UHGV virus genome: UHGV-0112899
Origin: a virus
Length of the DNA stretch: 64,000 nt
Reading direction: 5' to 3' (one strand)
The notes under the pieces are model-generated. The model was not told where the DNA came from and ran no database searches. It worked only from the letters and a program-made list of their open reading frames with translations. Shown here in pieces: positions 3,018 through 53,950 of the stretch. A program made the position numbers and the translations under genes. Every line of letters begins with the position of its first letter. Position 1 is the stretch's first letter.

Positions 3018-3593
3018 ATGAAGCAAAGCTATTGGGAGAAACAGACACAAAAAGCCCTGCAAAAACTGGCTGATCCGAAATGGCGGGAGGAACAAAGGGC
3101 AAAGCGTCTTCAGCAAGCTCAACGCCAGCAGCAGCGTGCGCGAGAAAAAGCCGCATCGCCTGAATATCGGCAAAAGAAAATTGAAAAAGCGAAGCAATAT
3201 GAACAGCGAAGAAAAGAGAAGGCCGCTTCTGCTCCTGTCAAAAAAACTCGCGCGTCACGCGGCCTGAAAGGCAGAACACTCACAGCAGATGAGCGCCGGA
3301 TACAAACTGCCATCGGTGCTCTCCCCTGCATTGCCTGCCATATGCACGGACAGCATAGCCCTGTGGTATCCCTGCACCACATCTTCGGGAGAACAGCAGA
3401 GAACGCGCATAAATACGTCCTCCCTTTGTGTAAATGGCACCATCAACACGCAGCGCCAGCAGAGATCCGCGAGCAATACCCCTGGTTGGTTCCTGTTCAT
3501 GCTGATGGAAAAATAGGCGGCAAAGCAGATTTCAGGCGGCACAATGCTGATGAAATGACGTTGTATCAGATGGTGACTGAATTAATAAATTAA
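3018..3593 (+). CDS. HNH-motif protein with basic N-terminus, Ref-like (DUF968-like)
   Basis: Lys/Arg/Gln-rich N-terminal half, then CIACHMHG...HHIFG...CKWHH Cys/His cluster; ATG at 3018. Confidence 0.45.
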   Translation: MKQSYWEKQTQKALQKLADPKWREEQRAKRLQQAQRQQQRAREKAASPEYRQKKIEKAKQYEQRRKEKAASAPVKKTRASRGLKGRTLTADERRIQTAIGALPCIACHMHGQHSPVVSLHHIFGRTAENAHKYVLPLCKWHHQHAAPAEIREQYPWLVPVHADGKIGGKADFRRHNADEMTLYQMVTELIN

Positions 3594-3607
3594 TTTTCTA
3601 ACATTTT
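3592..3607. promoter_or_regulatory. operator-like motif copy
   Basis: aattttctaacatttt matches the dispersed TGTTAGAAAAT core. Confidence 0.35.
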
Positions 3608-13687: not shown

Positions 13688-14361
13688 AACGCAGAGCGCA
13701 AATCGTAGGGACCAAACACCCTGCCGGACTTATGCGAGCGCAGGTCCGCATACTGCCTGACTGGGACGGTGTACCGGATGAAGACCTCCCATGGGCAGAG
13801 TATCAAATGCCTATCGGTAACGCCTTTACACCTACAGTCAGCGGCGATTTAGTCTGGGTCGAATTTCCTTATCTGGATGCTAAAGGCAGGATAGACACGC
13901 GCCGACCTTTAATCGTTGGCGCGGCGCAGGATGCCCCAGGAGGCGTACCAAATGTGCCTCCGGAAGCCTCCGGACAAGGAAGTGGATGGTCGCCAGAAGA
14001 AGTTGATGGTGCTCCTGCCCGCCCCCAGTTTTCGGCGACTGAAGATTTTGTTATTCACCGAAACAATATCCTTGAGGTCAGAACGGCTGGCGGTGGCTAT
14101 GAAATAGCAAACACCGCCGCAGGATCAAGGATAGGGATGAACGAATCCGGCCAGATTTACATAATCGGCCCGGCGAATATAGTGCTTAATGCTGGTGGTG
14201 AGGTTAACGTCAAATCAAGCAGCAAAACCAATGTATCCTCTGATGGAGACGTTAATGTAAAAGGCAGCAATGTAACCGTCGCCGCTGATGGTGATATAGC
14301 CCTGAAAGCTGGTGGCGCGCTAAAAGCAACAGCGAGCAATTTCTCCTTTGTAAAGGGATAG
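13684..14361 (+). CDS. baseplate spike protein (gpV-like)
   Basis: N-terminal VRILPDWDGVPDEDLPWAEY...GDLVWVEF OB-fold-like motif and C-terminal beta-helix-like repeats. Confidence 0.45.
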   Translation: MKRRAQIVGTKHPAGLMRAQVRILPDWDGVPDEDLPWAEYQMPIGNAFTPTVSGDLVWVEFPYLDAKGRIDTRRPLIVGAAQDAPGGVPNVPPEASGQGSGWSPEEVDGAPARPQFSATEDFVIHRNNILEVRTAGGGYEIANTAAGSRIGMNESGQIYIIGPANIVLNAGGEVNVKSSSKTNVSSDGDVNVKGSNVTVAADGDIALKAGGALKATASNFSFVKG

Positions 14362-14367
14362 CAAAAT

Positions 14368-14415
14368 GCAAAACTGTGTTAGATAATTGAGTTTTATTTT
14401 CTAACACAGTTTTGC
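14368..14415. promoter_or_regulatory. 48-bp near-perfect inverted repeat with operator core
   Basis: gcaaaactgtgttagataa ... ttttctaacacagttttgc between the spike gene and rdgC. Confidence 0.5.
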
Positions 14416-14420
14416 GAAAC

Positions 14421-15326
14421 ATGAGATTAGTCGCCTTTAAAAACATATACGTCTATCGCCTTGCCCGCGAAATTAAACTGGACTCAACCACCGTTAGTGA
14501 TGCCTTAAGCCAATTCACATTCACTCCATGCGCATCACAAGAAATGGCAAAAGTCGGATGGGTGCCGGTTCTGGCTGACAACCTGATCCATGAATACCAC
14601 GGTTTTCTACTTCTCCAGCAACAGCGAGAAATTAAGCTCCTGCCCTCCCATGTCATTAAGGAGGAAGTGCAGAAAAAAGTGGAAAAGCTCGAAAATGAGC
14701 AATCTCGTAAGCTGAAGAAGTCGGAAAAAAACACCCTGAAGGATGAAGTTCTCCACTCTTTGTTGCCTCGCGCATTCACTCGCAAATCATTGTCGCGAAT
14801 CCTTATTGATCGCGACAACTATCTGGTCTTCGTAGAAGCTTCCAGCGCCAGAAAAGCAGAAGAAATGCTGGCGCTCTTACGTAAATCACTTGGCAGCCTG
14901 CCAGTGATTCCATTCACGCCGATAGAACCGCTCGAAATGACTATGACCGAATGGTTCAAGTCAACATTTCCTCAAGGCTTTAAAGCAGGCGAAGAAGCCA
15001 TATTGAAATCTCTGTTCGATGACGGCGGCGCAGTTCGTTGCAAGAAAGTAGACCTACAGTCAGAGGAAATAATGACTCATATTGAAGCCGGAAAAGTTGC
15101 AACAACAGTTGCAATCAACTGGCAGGACCGCGCGACCTTCAGGTTAAACGATGACATGAGCATCAAAGCACTGACGTTTTGCGATGATCTCTATGACCAG
15201 AACGATGACATCGACCGTGAAGATGTTGCCCAGCGATTTGATGCTGACTTCATTCTGTTCACAAGCGAATTATCCGCGATGTTTAGCTCGCTGGTGGAGG
15301 CCATTGGCGGTGAAGCAGAGCATTAA
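14421..15326 (+). CDS. rdgC: recombination-associated protein RdgC
   Basis: strong full-length similarity to E. coli RdgC (FKNIYVYRL, FTPCASQEMAKVGWVP, KLKKSEKNTLKDEVLHSLLPRAF, DREDVAQRFDADFIL). Confidence 0.85.
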   Translation: MRLVAFKNIYVYRLAREIKLDSTTVSDALSQFTFTPCASQEMAKVGWVPVLADNLIHEYHGFLLLQQQREIKLLPSHVIKEEVQKKVEKLENEQSRKLKKSEKNTLKDEVLHSLLPRAFTRKSLSRILIDRDNYLVFVEASSARKAEEMLALLRKSLGSLPVIPFTPIEPLEMTMTEWFKSTFPQGFKAGEEAILKSLFDDGGAVRCKKVDLQSEEIMTHIEAGKVATTVAINWQDRATFRLNDDMSIKALTFCDDLYDQNDDIDREDVAQRFDADFILFTSELSAMFSSLVEAIGGEAEH

Positions 15327-15342
15327 TAACCGACCGCTGGCG

Positions 15343-15990
15343 GTGAGTCTTTGTGATTATACAGGGAATATGGTTTCCCCCTGGCTGGAACACGGCATTG
15401 ATGCAGTCATTGTCGATCCGCAACACCAGGAGTCCGGCAGCCAATTGATGGAGTCAGGTGCTGTACTCACACGTATCAGCGCAATTATTGACAGTGATGA
15501 GGTCTACAATTTCCTTCGGAAAAATTTGCACAGAGTTGTATTTTTAGCCGGTTTCCCTCCATGTACTGACCTGGCTGTATCTGGCGCACGCTGGTTCGCA
15601 GATAAAGCAAAAAAAGATCCGGTTTTCCAGTTCAAAGCAATGCAGGTTGTCTGGCAGTGTTACGACATTGCAAAGATGATTGGTTGCCCGTACATGATTG
15701 AAAACCCGGTCAGCCAAATATCGACATTCTGGCGTAAACCTGATCACATATTCCATCCTTATCACTTCACTGCATATTGCAAGGAAGACAATTACACCAA
15801 AAAAACATGCCTGTGGAGCGGACAAGGATTCATCATGCCAACTCCGCGAATCGACAAGTCGTTAGGTGATCCAGATAACCGAATACACAAGGCACCGCCA
15901 GGGCCTGAAAGAGCGAATTTTCGTAGCGCGACACCTTACGGTTTTGCAAGAGCTGTATTTGAAGCAAATAAGGAGGGAATCCGTGGCTGA
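15343..15990 (+). CDS. short C5-cytosine methyltransferase-like protein
   Basis: GFPPCTDLAVSGARW (PC-motif-like) and MIENP (ENV-like); only ~215 aa; start GTG 15343 or ATG 15370. Confidence 0.3.
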   Translation: MSLCDYTGNMVSPWLEHGIDAVIVDPQHQESGSQLMESGAVLTRISAIIDSDEVYNFLRKNLHRVVFLAGFPPCTDLAVSGARWFADKAKKDPVFQFKAMQVVWQCYDIAKMIGCPYMIENPVSQISTFWRKPDHIFHPYHFTAYCKEDNYTKKTCLWSGQGFIMPTPRIDKSLGDPDNRIHKAPPGPERANFRSATPYGFARAVFEANKEGIRG

Positions 15991-16900
15991 TATTGGTGCT
16001 AAATTTATTTCTTATAGCGACAATCATCGTCCTGCGGCGGAAGCCACTATCAGCCATATGCGACGTATTCGCTCGGAGGACGAATTTGATCGCCCAGTCT
16101 TTAAGTGGGTCGGCGGCAAATTTTCTGCACTGCCCATTATCTTCGAACACCTGCCCCACGGAAAACGGTTGATAGAACCTTTCGTTGGAGGTGGCGCTGT
16201 TTTCACTAATGCCGGATTTAAAAGCAACCTGCTGAACGATATCAATAATGACCTGATTAACTTCTATCAGACATTGCAGCGTGAAGGGCATTCTCTTATC
16301 ACACTGGCATATCGTTTTTTTCAGGATTACAACTCTGCTGATGCATTTTTGAATGTTCGCAATGCATTCAACAATGGTGCTTATGATTCCCTTCACCATG
16401 CAGCGGCGTTCCTGTATCTCAATCGTCATTGTTTTAATGGCGTCACTCGCTATAACCGTAAAGGAGAGTTCAACGTCGGATATGGAAAGCAGAAATCACC
16501 CCACTTCCCTCTCGCGGAAATGGAGGCGTTCCTGGCTGACGATATTTCAAAGTATTCGGAATTTGTGTCCGGCGATTTTGCTGGTGTAATTGAGGCTGCC
16601 GGGAATGATGATGTGATTTTCTGCGATCCCCCCTATGAACCATTGCCCGACACTACCGGATTTACAAATTACTCAGGGCATAGCTTTAGGTTTGAAGATC
16701 AACAACGGCTGGTGTCACTGCTGGTGGATGCCCACAGACGCGGAGCGAAAATTGTGATAACAAACAGTGGTGCGCCTAACATTCGCGAACTTTACGTTGG
16801 CAATGGCTTCAAGGTGTATCCTATGCCATCCCGTCGCTCTGTATCCTGTAAAGCATCAACGCGAATGATAGCTAACGACATTATAGCCACACTTAATTAA
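15983..16900 (+). CDS. dam: DNA adenine methyltransferase (Dam family)
   Basis: FKWVGGKFS, EPFVGGGAVF, FLYLNRHCFNGVTRYN, DPPY motifs; GTG start after AAGGAGGG. Confidence 0.85.
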   Translation: MADIGAKFISYSDNHRPAAEATISHMRRIRSEDEFDRPVFKWVGGKFSALPIIFEHLPHGKRLIEPFVGGGAVFTNAGFKSNLLNDINNDLINFYQTLQREGHSLITLAYRFFQDYNSADAFLNVRNAFNNGAYDSLHHAAAFLYLNRHCFNGVTRYNRKGEFNVGYGKQKSPHFPLAEMEAFLADDISKYSEFVSGDFAGVIEAAGNDDVIFCDPPYEPLPDTTGFTNYSGHSFRFEDQQRLVSLLVDAHRRGAKIVITNSGAPNIRELYVGNGFKVYPMPSRRSVSCKASTRMIANDIIATLN

Positions 16901-16901
16901 G

Positions 16902-16926
16902 AAAAGCCCCATATGGGGCTTTTATA
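16902..16926. terminator. bidirectional rho-independent terminator
   Basis: stem aagcccc/ggggctt with atat loop flanked by A/T runs; between convergent dam and partition operons. Confidence 0.6.
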
Positions 16927-16939
16927 ACATCAAACAAGC

Positions 16940-17030
16940 ACCGTTACGGTACACTAACAACACCATTCTGGTACTAAAAAGGAATCAAAGTAGCCTCAAA
17001 ATAACACATGGACCCAAAACGGTGTCATTC
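16940..17030. repeat. partition-site-like repeats (two direct, one inverted copy of CACCNTTNNGGTAC)
   Basis: caccgttacggtacactaa, caccattctggtactaaa and inverted gacccaaaacggtg; related copy at 18149-18176. Confidence 0.4.
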
Positions 17031-17035
17031 CGGCG

Positions 17036-17323
17036 TCATTTTGTATCCTCAGACTCTGCAAGCATGAGGATAGCATGGCGGATCATATTCAATTTGCTGC
17101 GATTATGCTTTTTGCTTAACGCATCAAGTACCTGGTACTCGTATTCATTGAAGCCAACACGAATGGATTTAAAATCACGTGGGGCGTCCTTATCGAGCAC
17201 TTTGTTGTCTTCTGGTTGCTCACCCGGCACCAAATCAGCTTTGCTGGCAAAAGCCTCAATTCGGCGTTCAAGATCGAGGTCTTTTACTTCGGGGGCTTTT
17301 ACCGATTTACGAGGCTTAATCAC
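17036..17323 (-). CDS. ParG-like ribbon-helix-helix partition protein
   Basis: 95 aa; C-terminal RHH-like segment; GTG start after AAGGAG; coupled to the upstream ATPase. Confidence 0.55.
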   Translation of the reverse strand: MIKPRKSVKAPEVKDLDLERRIEAFASKADLVPGEQPEDNKVLDKDAPRDFKSIRVGFNEYEYQVLDALSKKHNRSKLNMIRHAILMLAESEDTK

Positions 17324-17957
17324 TTAATAACTCCTTAACCAACATCTGGATTTCACCTTTAGCTTTCCCGTTGTCCATCTCAACAACGCCCTTCCCTTCA
17401 GCCATACAATCGCGGTAAACCTTGCGATCGCGAATGATGGTTTTCAGCAACTTCAGTTGCGGATATTCAGCCAGGTACTCTTTGGCCTCATTGGCTTCAT
17501 TCACAACCGGATTGGATGGGGCCATTGTTAAAACTGCGCACGCCTTAATGCTAGGATTAGGCATCAGATCCAAAGCCTCTTCAAAGACTTCAACAAAATG
17601 CGCCAGCGTGTCTAAATCTGGCTGAGATGGCCTGAATGGAACAAGCAAAACATCCGCCGCAGTAATACCGGTGCGCATCTCTTTGCTATCACGACCAGCG
17701 GTATCAACAACCACAAATTCATAACGCTTGTCCAGATCAAGAAGTGTTTCACGAATATTCCCAAACTTCTGGACGCAATGAATTACTGGAGAAACCTCTG
17801 CCGCATTACGGTCCGATGCCCAACGGGCAGATGTTCCTTGCTTATCTGCATCAAGTAGAACTACGTCCTTATTTGCGCGGGCAAGCTCCGCACAAATGTT
17901 TACGCTGGTGGTTGATTTGCCACAGCCACCTTTTTGGCTGGCTACCAATATAATCAT
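17316..17957 (-). CDS. parA: ParA/ParF-type partition ATPase
   Basis: deviant Walker A ASQKGGCGKSTT; 213 aa (small type Ib ParA). Confidence 0.8.
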   Translation of the reverse strand: MIILVASQKGGCGKSTTSVNICAELARANKDVVLLDADKQGTSARWASDRNAAEVSPVIHCVQKFGNIRETLLDLDKRYEFVVVDTAGRDSKEMRTGITAADVLLVPFRPSQPDLDTLAHFVEVFEEALDLMPNPSIKACAVLTMAPSNPVVNEANEAKEYLAEYPQLKLLKTIIRDRKVYRDCMAEGKGVVEMDNGKAKGEIQMLVKELLSD

Positions 17958-18242: not shown

Positions 18243-18608
18243 TTAATCAGGGAGTGAGTTTGCCAAATTCTGTGCAGAGCGGCTTTTCGAAACGCCAGGT
18301 TTTTTAACATCCGCTGAGGCTGAGGGGTTTCCTTCAGGGTTTTCCCGAACTTCAGGCGAAATTTCAAGAAATGAAACCAGCATTTTTCTGATCACTTCAG
18401 GGCTATTATCACCGGATAAAAGCGATGCCAACATGGGAGGTAATCTGCTATCAACCTCGCCAAGAGCGATACCTGCAAGCATCGCTGTGCGCGCCATATC
18501 ATTGCGATCTCTTAATGGATGGCCCTCAAGTTTTGCATCAGCATATTGCTCACTGGCGTTAAGACCAGGACGAAGATAAAACAATACTTTTCGACGTTCC
18601 TGAGACAT
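18243..18608 (-). CDS. parR: ParR/StbB-like partition adaptor
   Basis: 121-aa ORF immediately downstream of parM; assignment by position and size. Confidence 0.5.
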   Translation of the reverse strand: MSQERRKVLFYLRPGLNASEQYADAKLEGHPLRDRNDMARTAMLAGIALGEVDSRLPPMLASLLSGDNSPEVIRKMLVSFLEISPEVRENPEGNPSASADVKKPGVSKSRSAQNLANSLPD

Positions 18609-18618
18609 GGCAACCTCA

Positions 18619-19578
18619 TCAACCGATAGATTTTAGACCATAGACAAGAGCAAGTTGTGGATCATCAGCAACGAAAAACCTATCGTCACGAATGTTTACC
18701 TGCTCACGGATAGCATCAGCAACAAGCGGCGCGCCGCCACCAATGACCATAACATGCGTGTATCCTTTGAAATCACTGATCACATCCAGTACGCGTGTAC
18801 GGAGTCGTTCTATGCTTGACGAAATGGCTTTCTTAACATCATCAATAGCAGACGGATCGTTAATATTGTCGGTCAAATAATCCTCATCATCACGATTAAT
18901 GATTAATTGATCGACATTATAATTAGAGGTTTCGGTATTCGCTTTTGCAAGTGCCTGTCTGACCTCTTTAGTTACCAGCGAAACGCCGAGATTAGAATCG
19001 CCAAATACGCGAGAAACGGCGGTCATTTGCCCGGCGACCATCGACACATCCAGAGTAGTCCCACCAAGATCAACAATAAGCACAGAATGCGCTGGCACAA
19101 GGCTGTCGCACAGACCGATCCCTGCGGGTATTGACTCCGGGCGCACAGTCACTTTTTTGATAGTAAAAACCTGACCTTTGTTAAGGGTGACTGGTCGCAT
19201 CAGGCTGGCCTTTTTCCGCTCAATATTTTTCATGTTGTATTGTGCGTCGTCGTCATAAAACTCTGCCAGTGGCAACGTGACAACTATTTCCACTTCTTGA
19301 GGCTCAATGCCACTTGTAAGCAGGGCATGATGAACAGCAAGCACATTAAGCGGGCTGTATTGCCATTCCACATTATTCGTCGGCAGCACATCCGGCGAAA
19401 TCAAGTCATATGAATATTTTTCGTCATCAATGATGTAGTTAAACGGCTTTCCTGCGCCAAATGTGGCGGACCATCCACGTTTAAAACTGTTCGGACAGAT
19501 ATGGGTTCGAGTTTCCCCGTCTTGTTCCCACAGCATTTTGATATTGGTAGAACCATCGTCGATAAAAATGCGCATCAT
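18619..19578 (-). CDS. parM: ParM/StbA actin-like partition ATPase
   Basis: N-terminal MRIFIDDGSTNIKM and VDLGGTTLDV, VIGGGAPL actin-fold motifs; 320 aa from ATG 19578. Confidence 0.75.
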   Translation of the reverse strand: MMRIFIDDGSTNIKMLWEQDGETRTHICPNSFKRGWSATFGAGKPFNYIIDDEKYSYDLISPDVLPTNNVEWQYSPLNVLAVHHALLTSGIEPQEVEIVVTLPLAEFYDDDAQYNMKNIERKKASLMRPVTLNKGQVFTIKKVTVRPESIPAGIGLCDSLVPAHSVLIVDLGGTTLDVSMVAGQMTAVSRVFGDSNLGVSLVTKEVRQALAKANTETSNYNVDQLIINRDDEDYLTDNINDPSAIDDVKKAISSSIERLRTRVLDVISDFKGYTHVMVIGGGAPLVADAIREQVNIRDDRFFVADDPQLALVYGLKSIG

Positions 19579-19589
19579 ATTGCTCCACT

Positions 19590-19770
19590 TCTGAGACACA
19601 TTTGAGAAAGAATTGAATTTTATATGAGAAAACAAAATAAGACCAGAAGTTAGATAGCGTAAAAAGCATCAAACTAGAGACGTAAAAGAGACACAAAAGA
19701 GACTTAGATGATACATGATGTACCCATGATACCCTTTTGAGACAAATCAGAGACAAATATGAGAAGTAAG
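19590..19770. repeat. parC-like centromere: two clusters of ~11-bp GAGAC(A/G) iterons
   Basis: agagacgtaaa/agagacacaaa/agagacttaga and ttgagacaaatc/agagacaaata/tgagaagtaag flanking a central segment, upstream of parM. Confidence 0.5.
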
Positions 19771-22453: not shown

Positions 22454-22531
22454 GTTCTAATGTTTTATGTTAGAAAATTAAGATTAAACCATACTAACAC
22501 AAGATTGTTAACGAAAATTATTTTTCTAATG
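22454..22531. promoter_or_regulatory. cluster of three operator-like motifs in a divergent promoter region
   Basis: gttctaatg (22454-22462), tgttagaaaat (22469-22479), ttttctaatg (22522-22531). Confidence 0.45.
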
Positions 22532-53917: not shown

Positions 53918-53950
53918 AATTTTCTAACACAGTGTGTTTTTATACACTGT
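53918..53950. promoter_or_regulatory. operator-like motif with adjacent inverted repeat
   Basis: aattttctaacacagtgtg plus IR acagtgt/acactgt. Confidence 0.4.

Follow-up and report, generated by a model that had tools for sequence, protein, structure and literature searches.

A 64,000-nucleotide stretch of the virus genome UHGV-0112899 (the window) carries, at positions 14421-16900, three genes packed in tandem, the stop of one overlapping the start of the next: rdgC, a gene encoding an unusually small protein of the C5-cytosine DNA methyltransferase type, and dam. They form one tightly coupled unit. Taken together, it is probable that the window belongs to a D6-type, P1-related phage-plasmid of Escherichia coli, that this region is the counterpart of the hrdC-dmt operon of phage P1, that its middle gene encodes a compact C5-methyltransferase and that the operon is controlled from an upstream operator. 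What the analysis shows is which genes are present, their synteny, the predicted fold, conservation of active-site residues, purifying selection, and an operator-like motif with its distribution.

The rdgC, compact methyltransferase and dam operon

The first gene (14421-15326, plus strand) encodes a 301-residue homologue of P1 HrdC, which matches the Pfam RdgC family PF04381 in full length (positions 3-298 of 298, E 1.2e-100) and the NCBIfam model NF001462 with 375.6 bits (cutoff 330); its counterparts in the RefSeq and phage D6 records are labelled RdgC or HrdC-like. The second gene (15310-15990, plus strand) encodes a C5-cytosine DNA methyltransferase-like protein of 226 residues, with Cys85 in FPPC, Glu131 in ENP and Lys164/Lys165 in TKKT. 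The third gene, dam (15983-16900, plus strand), encodes a D12-class N6-adenine DNA methyltransferase of 305 residues, which matches PF02086 (MethyltransfD12, E 2.2e-53) and TIGR00571 (231.6 bits, cutoff 114.85) and contains the catalytic motif DPPY, as CDPPYEP. In the phrog_116 profile, which has 779 positions, this protein aligned to 493-777, and its first 35 residues or so are the equivalent of the linker in fused Dmt proteins. The GTG start of dam at 15983, also used in the RefSeq and D6 annotations, is preceded by AAGGAGG (15971-15977) and lies in an 8-nt overlap with the middle gene, whose stop codon is TGA 15988-15990. By this overlap, and by one of 17 nt between rdgC and the middle gene, translation of the three genes would be coupled. 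The operon is closed by a terminator-like hairpin at 16902-16923 (plus strand; AAAAGCCCC-AUAU-GGGGCUUUU) with a folding energy of -14.6 kcal/mol and a z-score of -4.2; it was found by folding and is absent from the output of a consensus terminator scan, its T-run being short.

A preliminary description of this DNA had already recognized a clear RdgC homologue, a Dam methylase whose GTG start overlaps the previous stop, and a single operon, all of which agree with the profile matches and with the overlaps seen throughout. Its suggestion that methylation would protect the DNA from restriction while RdgC modulates RecA is reasonable by analogy.

Two related plasmids depart from this layout: in L012 (CP042620.1, 1867-2888) dam is split in two open reading frames, and in L013 (NZ_CP069647.1) rdgC and the middle gene are fragmented, in both cases through decay or sequencing error.

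The middle gene encodes a full-length member of a large family

Open from 15184 to 15990, the reading frame of the middle gene includes the sequence GFPPCTDLAVSGARW, also quoted as FPPCTDLAVSGARW, together with MIENP. The start codon had been placed at 15343, giving about 215 residues; most likely it is GTG 15310 instead, because GGAGG at 15296-15300 lies 9 nt upstream of it, because orf64 of D6 and plasmid L010 use the same codon for the same 226-residue product, and because the N-termini of homologues carry conserved residues beyond 15343. We also count the 17-nt overlap with rdgC toward this start. The start chosen in RefSeq, ATG 15370 (WP_068981782.1), would remove the conserved SLCDYTG motif of the motif I region.

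The protein matches phrog_757, annotated as DNA methyltransferase, over residues 2-212 (E 4.7e-77). By tblastn, 1571 phage records contain relatives, among them Drexlerviridae and numerous Klebsiella phages, and the usual annotation is DNA or cytosine methyltransferase; more than 6484 relatives are present in a large protein database (E<=1e-3), and an exhaustive profile search, clustered at 50% identity, gave 2571 representatives, with lengths of 205-260 residues in nearly every case. In an alignment of 98 diverse representatives, 33-51% identical to the window protein, six residues are invariant: C85, E131, P133, K164, T166 and W169. The ratio of nonsynonymous to synonymous substitution rates (dN/dS) is 0.075 in relation to D6, where dS is saturated, a constraint as strong as that on rdgC (0.093); in relation to another plasmid lineage it is 0.088.

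Judged by its sequence, the middle gene product belongs, at full length, to a large family of putative DNA cytosine methylases of unusually small size. The preliminary description had called it truncated and possibly degenerate; its length is the norm of the family (205-260 residues), its catalytic residues are invariant and its dN/dS is 0.075, so these terms do not apply. The PC-like and ENV-like (MIENP) motifs noted there are present, and they are not due to chance, since their Cys and Glu are invariant in the 98 representatives.

Predicted fold and motifs of the compact methyltransferase

The AlphaFold2 model of the middle protein has a mean predicted local distance difference test score (pLDDT) of 87 and a predicted template modelling score (pTM) of 0.86. 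In a Foldseek search of the PDB the top matches were almost all methyltransferase domains of DNMT3A and DNMT3B (best probability 0.99), and 169-180 of the 215 model residues superposed on the matched C5-methyltransferases, the smallest of which have 291-348 residues. The model thus predicts a class I methyltransferase catalytic domain whose nearest relatives are C5-methyltransferases. This ranking rules out a different fold, which the preliminary description had left as an alternative, and supports its other proposal, a non-canonical C5-cytosine methyltransferase-like protein, together with the motifs in register and a homologue reported to make 5-methylcytosine (5mC).

Profile-profile comparison with hhalign used as templates M.HhaI alone, the M.HhaI family (all >=71% identical) and the N-terminal domains of P1 Dmt, the M.HhaI sequence having been checked against 10mh_A; database searches for these templates gave close relatives only. 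The best pairwise P value, against M.HhaI, was 0.017, with motifs I to VI covered and in register, a result that is not decisive. In the alignment with DNMT2, motifs I, II and IV are in register. Motif I is SLCDYTGNM, which is aligned with LYSGIGGM of DNMT2 and FAGLGG of M.HhaI and keeps one Gly. Motif IV is FPPC, whose invariant Cys85 is aligned with the PC of DNMT2 and M.HhaI, and motif VI is ENP, with an invariant Glu131 and with Asn132 in at least 90% of the members, aligned with the ENV of M.HhaI. No RxR of the motif VIII pattern QxRxR was found in the middle protein, which has YTKKTCLW, including the invariant K164, at that position.

No separate target-recognition domain was found between motifs VIII and IX. 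Since about 35 residues separate KKT from the C-terminal RSxTPxGF, a canonical one is missing, as the preliminary description had noticed. This stretch is modelled with lower confidence, and some relatives show insertions of 14-32 residues in it or just before it, the behaviour expected of a specificity loop. The structure-level tests thus indicate that the protein would have the whole catalytic domain and lack the small domain. The frequencies of CCWGG, GATC and other sites in the window were uninformative on specificity.

An experimentally studied homologue

In phage K42 (KarlJaspers strain), all four mutants that escaped retron Ec86 had a disrupted or potentially disrupted 711-bp dcm gene; K42 Dcm alone triggered the retron, and 5mC in the multicopy single-stranded DNA was raised according to liquid chromatography-mass spectrometry (preprint, bioRxiv 10.1101/2023.08.16.553469). 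The C82A/E128A/K175A/K176A mutant produced neither the rise in 5mC nor triggering; these residues had been picked by superposing an AlphaFold model on DNMT3A, a superposition from which the authors regarded K175 and K176 as substrate-binding (bioRxiv 10.1101/2023.08.16.553469).

Phage aaroes gp12, also encoded by a 711-bp gene, has Cys, Glu, Lys and Lys at positions 82, 128, 175 and 176 by our own count, and is 97.5% identical to the Dcm-like C5 cytosine methyltransferase of KarlJaspers. Its identity to the window protein is 40% over the full length, and C82, E128, K175 and K176 of K42 Dcm correspond to C85, E131, K164 and K165 of the window protein.

An operator-like palindrome upstream of rdgC

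A palindrome at 14368-14416, directly 5' of rdgC, has the features of an operator. Its core, TGTGTTAGATAAT-N8-ATTTTCTAACACA (14375-14408, 34 bp), is extended by outer arms to a 16-bp stem. The core is conserved in D6 and in other plasmids, and the outer arms vary yet stay complementary, with the pairs AAAAC/GTTTT, CCATT/AATGG and CCAAT/ATTGG among the lineages (window 14368-14416; L001 3803-3848; L010-L012 at about 365-415).

The half-site recurs. The 9-mer TGTGTTAGA is present in five copies in the window (0.46 expected), and the 13-mer TGTGTTAGAAAAT, with up to two mismatches, in 11 copies (1.8 expected), with 10 more elsewhere in the plasmid. Inverted pairs of the 13-mer with one and the same offset of 21 bp number at least five, and single sites also occur. 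The sites lie at 2941-2974, 14375-14408, 53919-53931, 22466-22478 and 3593-3605 in the window, and at 2536/2557, 6316/6337, 26468/26489 and 10779 in sequence L095. Some adjoin ref, others are upstream of icd/ant-like genes, and one is 18 bp before a 345-codon gene for a distant C1 homologue (WP_029701835.1), between pacB and a cre-like recombinase gene. This layout parallels that of Oref, Oc4, Oc1 and Odmt in P1. By analogy, the set looks like putative repressor operators of the D6 lineage, parallel to the C1 operators of P1. The P1 C1 operator consensus itself had no match in the window at up to three mismatches; in a by-eye alignment, the 13-mer and the P1 operators share a TCTAA core. The palindrome does not resemble the -22 box of P1 late promoters (AAGTGACTT).

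The left half-site before rdgC is GATAAT (14382-14387) in all lineages compared and, being constant, may double as a -10 element. As RNA, the palindrome would fold with -25.5 kcal/mol (z -6.5); 5 nt separate its 3' arm from the start codon of rdgC, so one may speculate that the hairpin masks rdgC translation on transcripts reading through from the tail operon. The other copies of the 13-mer lack complementary outer arms, which suggests that at the rdgC site alone a hairpin, of RNA or DNA, has a further role.

Weighing the alternatives

Several results weigh against a C5-methyltransferase gene under operator control. The middle protein did not match PF00145 in Pfam even at E<=10, nor any NCBIfam model at E<=1; phmmer gave no match in the PDB, and a profile of close homologues retrieved from the PDB only chance matches to ornithine decarboxylase. 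A deeper family profile reached DNMT2 with a non-significant E value of 0.09, and motif I is DxTG instead of FxGxG. The anchoring experiment comes from a preprint and concerns a homologue with 40% identity to the window protein. The CCWGG target of K42 Dcm is not transferable to the window enzyme because the loop that replaces the target-recognition domain differs, and this specificity is itself uncertain because the host, MG1655, is dcm+. Concerning the operator, the similarity between the product of the 345-codon gene and P1 C1 is distant (21% identity over 241 residues, E 6e-6 in a small database), and a sigma-70 consensus scan found no promoter in 14200-17100, hence none near the palindrome. 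The comparison with C5-methyltransferase profiles, which the preliminary description had proposed as a check, would have misled if taken alone. P1 Dmt, scanned in the same manner, matches PF00145 with E 1.6e-35; the window protein lies below the detection limit of this model.

That the middle gene is a degenerate, catalytically dead remnant, kept as a spacer, a regulator or a DNA-binding protein, is highly improbable. It would agree with the short reading frame, the absence of a Pfam match, the RefSeq label and the fragmentation of neighbouring genes in some related plasmids. However, the invariant Cys and Glu, the low dN/dS and a length typical of the 2571 cluster representatives speak against it, as does the abolished activity of the homologue when conserved residues are mutated. 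Furthermore, the Hint domain of the intein-bearing member P0334 begins at residue 73, and beyond it the match to the family continues from profile position 74, which is the catalytic Cys. We also think it unlikely, though less so, that the C5-methyltransferase fold serves another chemistry or substrate, such as carboxymethyl transfer from carboxy-S-adenosylmethionine, RNA or tRNA as in DNMT2, or single-stranded DNA.

A dependence on Dam is quite improbable as well. The compact protein would then work only in a complex with the co-translated Dam as its DNA-binding or targeting module, and cytosines near or within GATC would be methylated. In keeping with this, the two genes overlap by 8 nt, the compact enzyme has no target-recognition domain, the window Dam retains an extension resembling a linker at its N-terminus, a C5 domain and Dam are joined in one P1 protein, and a natural fusion of a compact Dcm with Dam exists (P0241, 563 residues, 54% and 48% identical). 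Nevertheless, the trio of rdgC, compact gene and dam was found in 23 of the 80 viral loci with the compact gene, all of them P1/D6-like, and in the other 57 no relative of the window Dam or RdgC lies within about 4 kb, as far as the contig extends. Next to the Hanrivervirus gene no methylase is annotated, and K42 Dcm expressed alone from a plasmid sufficed for methylation and retron triggering. The loci without Dam, together with the K42 result, argue for a compact enzyme that acts alone, and its pairing with Dam looks like a habit of the lineage, not a requirement.

A bolder form of the C5-methyltransferase reading, which we regard as unlikely, is that the compact enzyme represents the smallest type of DNA C5-methyltransferase, lacking a target-recognition domain and reading DNA in an unusual manner: by the loop of about 35 residues, by DNMT3-like oligomerisation or by a borrowed Dam. 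If so, the D6-type pair would write a combined N6-methyladenine and 5mC mark at or near GATC, or would act with very relaxed specificity.

Proposed mechanism and role

For catalysis by the window protein, its target sequence, the repressor control and the biological role, we infer the following from homology and from the P1 precedent. The compact enzyme would be an S-adenosylmethionine-dependent DNA cytosine-C5 methyltransferase with a complete catalytic (large) domain. Cys85 of FPPC would attack C6 of a flipped-out cytosine, Glu131 of ENP would protonate N3, and Lys164/Lys165 would substitute for the canonical arginines of motif VIII. With the loop of about 35 residues in place of a separate target-recognition domain, its architecture would be closer to the catalytic domain of DNMT3 than to M.HhaI.

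The palindrome before the operon would be a bivalent operator of the C1-like repressor of the element, so that the operon is probably silent in the plasmid prophage and turned on at induction or infection, as in the case of P1 Pdmt/Op68. Both methylases would then mark replicating phage DNA. Dam is predicted to be a GATC N6-adenine methyltransferase, with a role in pac cleavage and gene regulation by P1 precedent, and the benefit of cytosine methylation is likely protection from restriction at cytosine-containing sites. A known cost of such phage Dcm enzymes is that they can trigger retron Ec86.

Genomic setting

Plasmid 4 of E. coli MINF_7C (NZ_LR890273.1, 92.8 kb) shows 100% identity to the window over 14400-16900, a region matched by 113 plasmid records from E. 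coli, Salmonella and Shigella. Nucleotide identity to phage D6, a P1-related phage-plasmid, is about 75%, with the gene order kept. Upstream neighbours are P1-type tail and baseplate genes, and downstream there are ParA-like and ParM/StbA partition genes, a setting that fits a D6-type phage-plasmid. No tRNA genes were found in the operon region.

Downstream of the operon, on the minus strand, two unlike partition-type modules are adjacent: one at 17316-17957 with a small ParA/MipZ-like ATPase, and one at 18243-19635 with a ParM/StbA actin-like ATPase and a StbB-like partner.

Family variants and annotation

The finding is real but ordinary, given that phage D6 carries the arrangement with the same annotation and that functional data exist for the family. 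There is, however, an annotation gap: a family present in 1571 phage records and in more than 2500 clusters at 50% identity is covered by no Pfam or NCBIfam model, and the RefSeq entry is labelled hypothetical protein, with a start codon that removes motif I. In enzymological terms, this family of predicted C5-methyltransferases of about 220 residues without a target-recognition domain is an under-studied minimal form. Such enzymes affect how phage-plasmids circulating in clinical E. coli and Salmonella evade restriction and activate retrons.

Some methylases found in the searches have additional domains. P0334 (548 residues) and P0216 (740 residues) bear inteins with Hint and LAGLIDADG domains, P0216 being a relative of the P1-type Dmt. 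In P0295 (348 residues) a compact Dcm-like protein is fused to a C-terminal HNH endonuclease domain, and this may be a single-chain restriction-modification-like or homing unit.

Comparison with known systems

DNMT3A and DNMT3B, as well as M.HhaI, M.HaeIII, 3g7u and 3lx6, share the catalytic-domain fold predicted for the window protein, with the PC and ENV motifs in register, and DNMT3 resembles it further in its very small target-recognition domain. In relation to DNMT3A/3B and the bacterial C5-methyltransferases, the window protein is 60-110 residues shorter and has no separate small domain; it differs from canonical enzymes in the DxTG of motif I, in having KK instead of RxR in motif VIII and in escaping detection by Pfam.

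The Dcm of K42/KarlJaspers (Bas06) belongs to the same family and keeps the Cys, the Glu and the Lys-Lys pair, with 236 residues compared to 226. However, the KarlJaspers-type gene stands alone in a virulent phage of the Drexlerviridae, where neither a methylase nor rdgC is annotated next to it, and its product shows a 14-residue insertion and a different loop in place of the target-recognition domain, so that its specificity may differ.

A close counterpart is that of phage D6 (MF356679), in which orf65, orf64 and orf63 encode an HrdC-like RdgC, a putative DNA-cytosine methylase and a site-specific DNA-adenine methylase in the same order and with the same overlaps of 17 and 8 nt; the baseplate gene upstream and the core of the palindrome are shared as well. 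The orf64 product is 84% identical to the middle protein of the window, whereas the outer palindrome arms differ. D6 and several related plasmids also have a glutaminyl-tRNA synthetase gene (glnS) downstream of dam (L001, 6370-8031), which the window lineage lacks (16901-17035).

In P1, the operon is uhr-hrdC-dmt and is under the control of the C1 operator Op68 and the promoter Pdmt. Among P1-like plasmids, Dmt variants of about 672 residues (P0235-P0240) match P1 at 91-92% identity across no more than 57% of the C5 domain, a pattern that suggests swapping of target-recognition regions. Both P1 and the window show an RdgC homologue followed by a cytosine methyltransferase module and Dam; the operator-like palindrome of the window lies before rdgC where Op68 is found in P1. 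The window has no uhr gene. Residues 471-753 of P1 Dmt, which include part of the linker, are 69% identical to the window Dam. P1 Dmt fuses a canonical PF00145 domain of about 460 residues to Dam, whereas the window has two genes with an 8-nt overlap, and the middle protein shows no similarity to the C5 domain of P1 Dmt by BLASTP. The same operon slot is therefore filled, in P1 and in the window, by two very distant members of the C5-methyltransferase superfamily.

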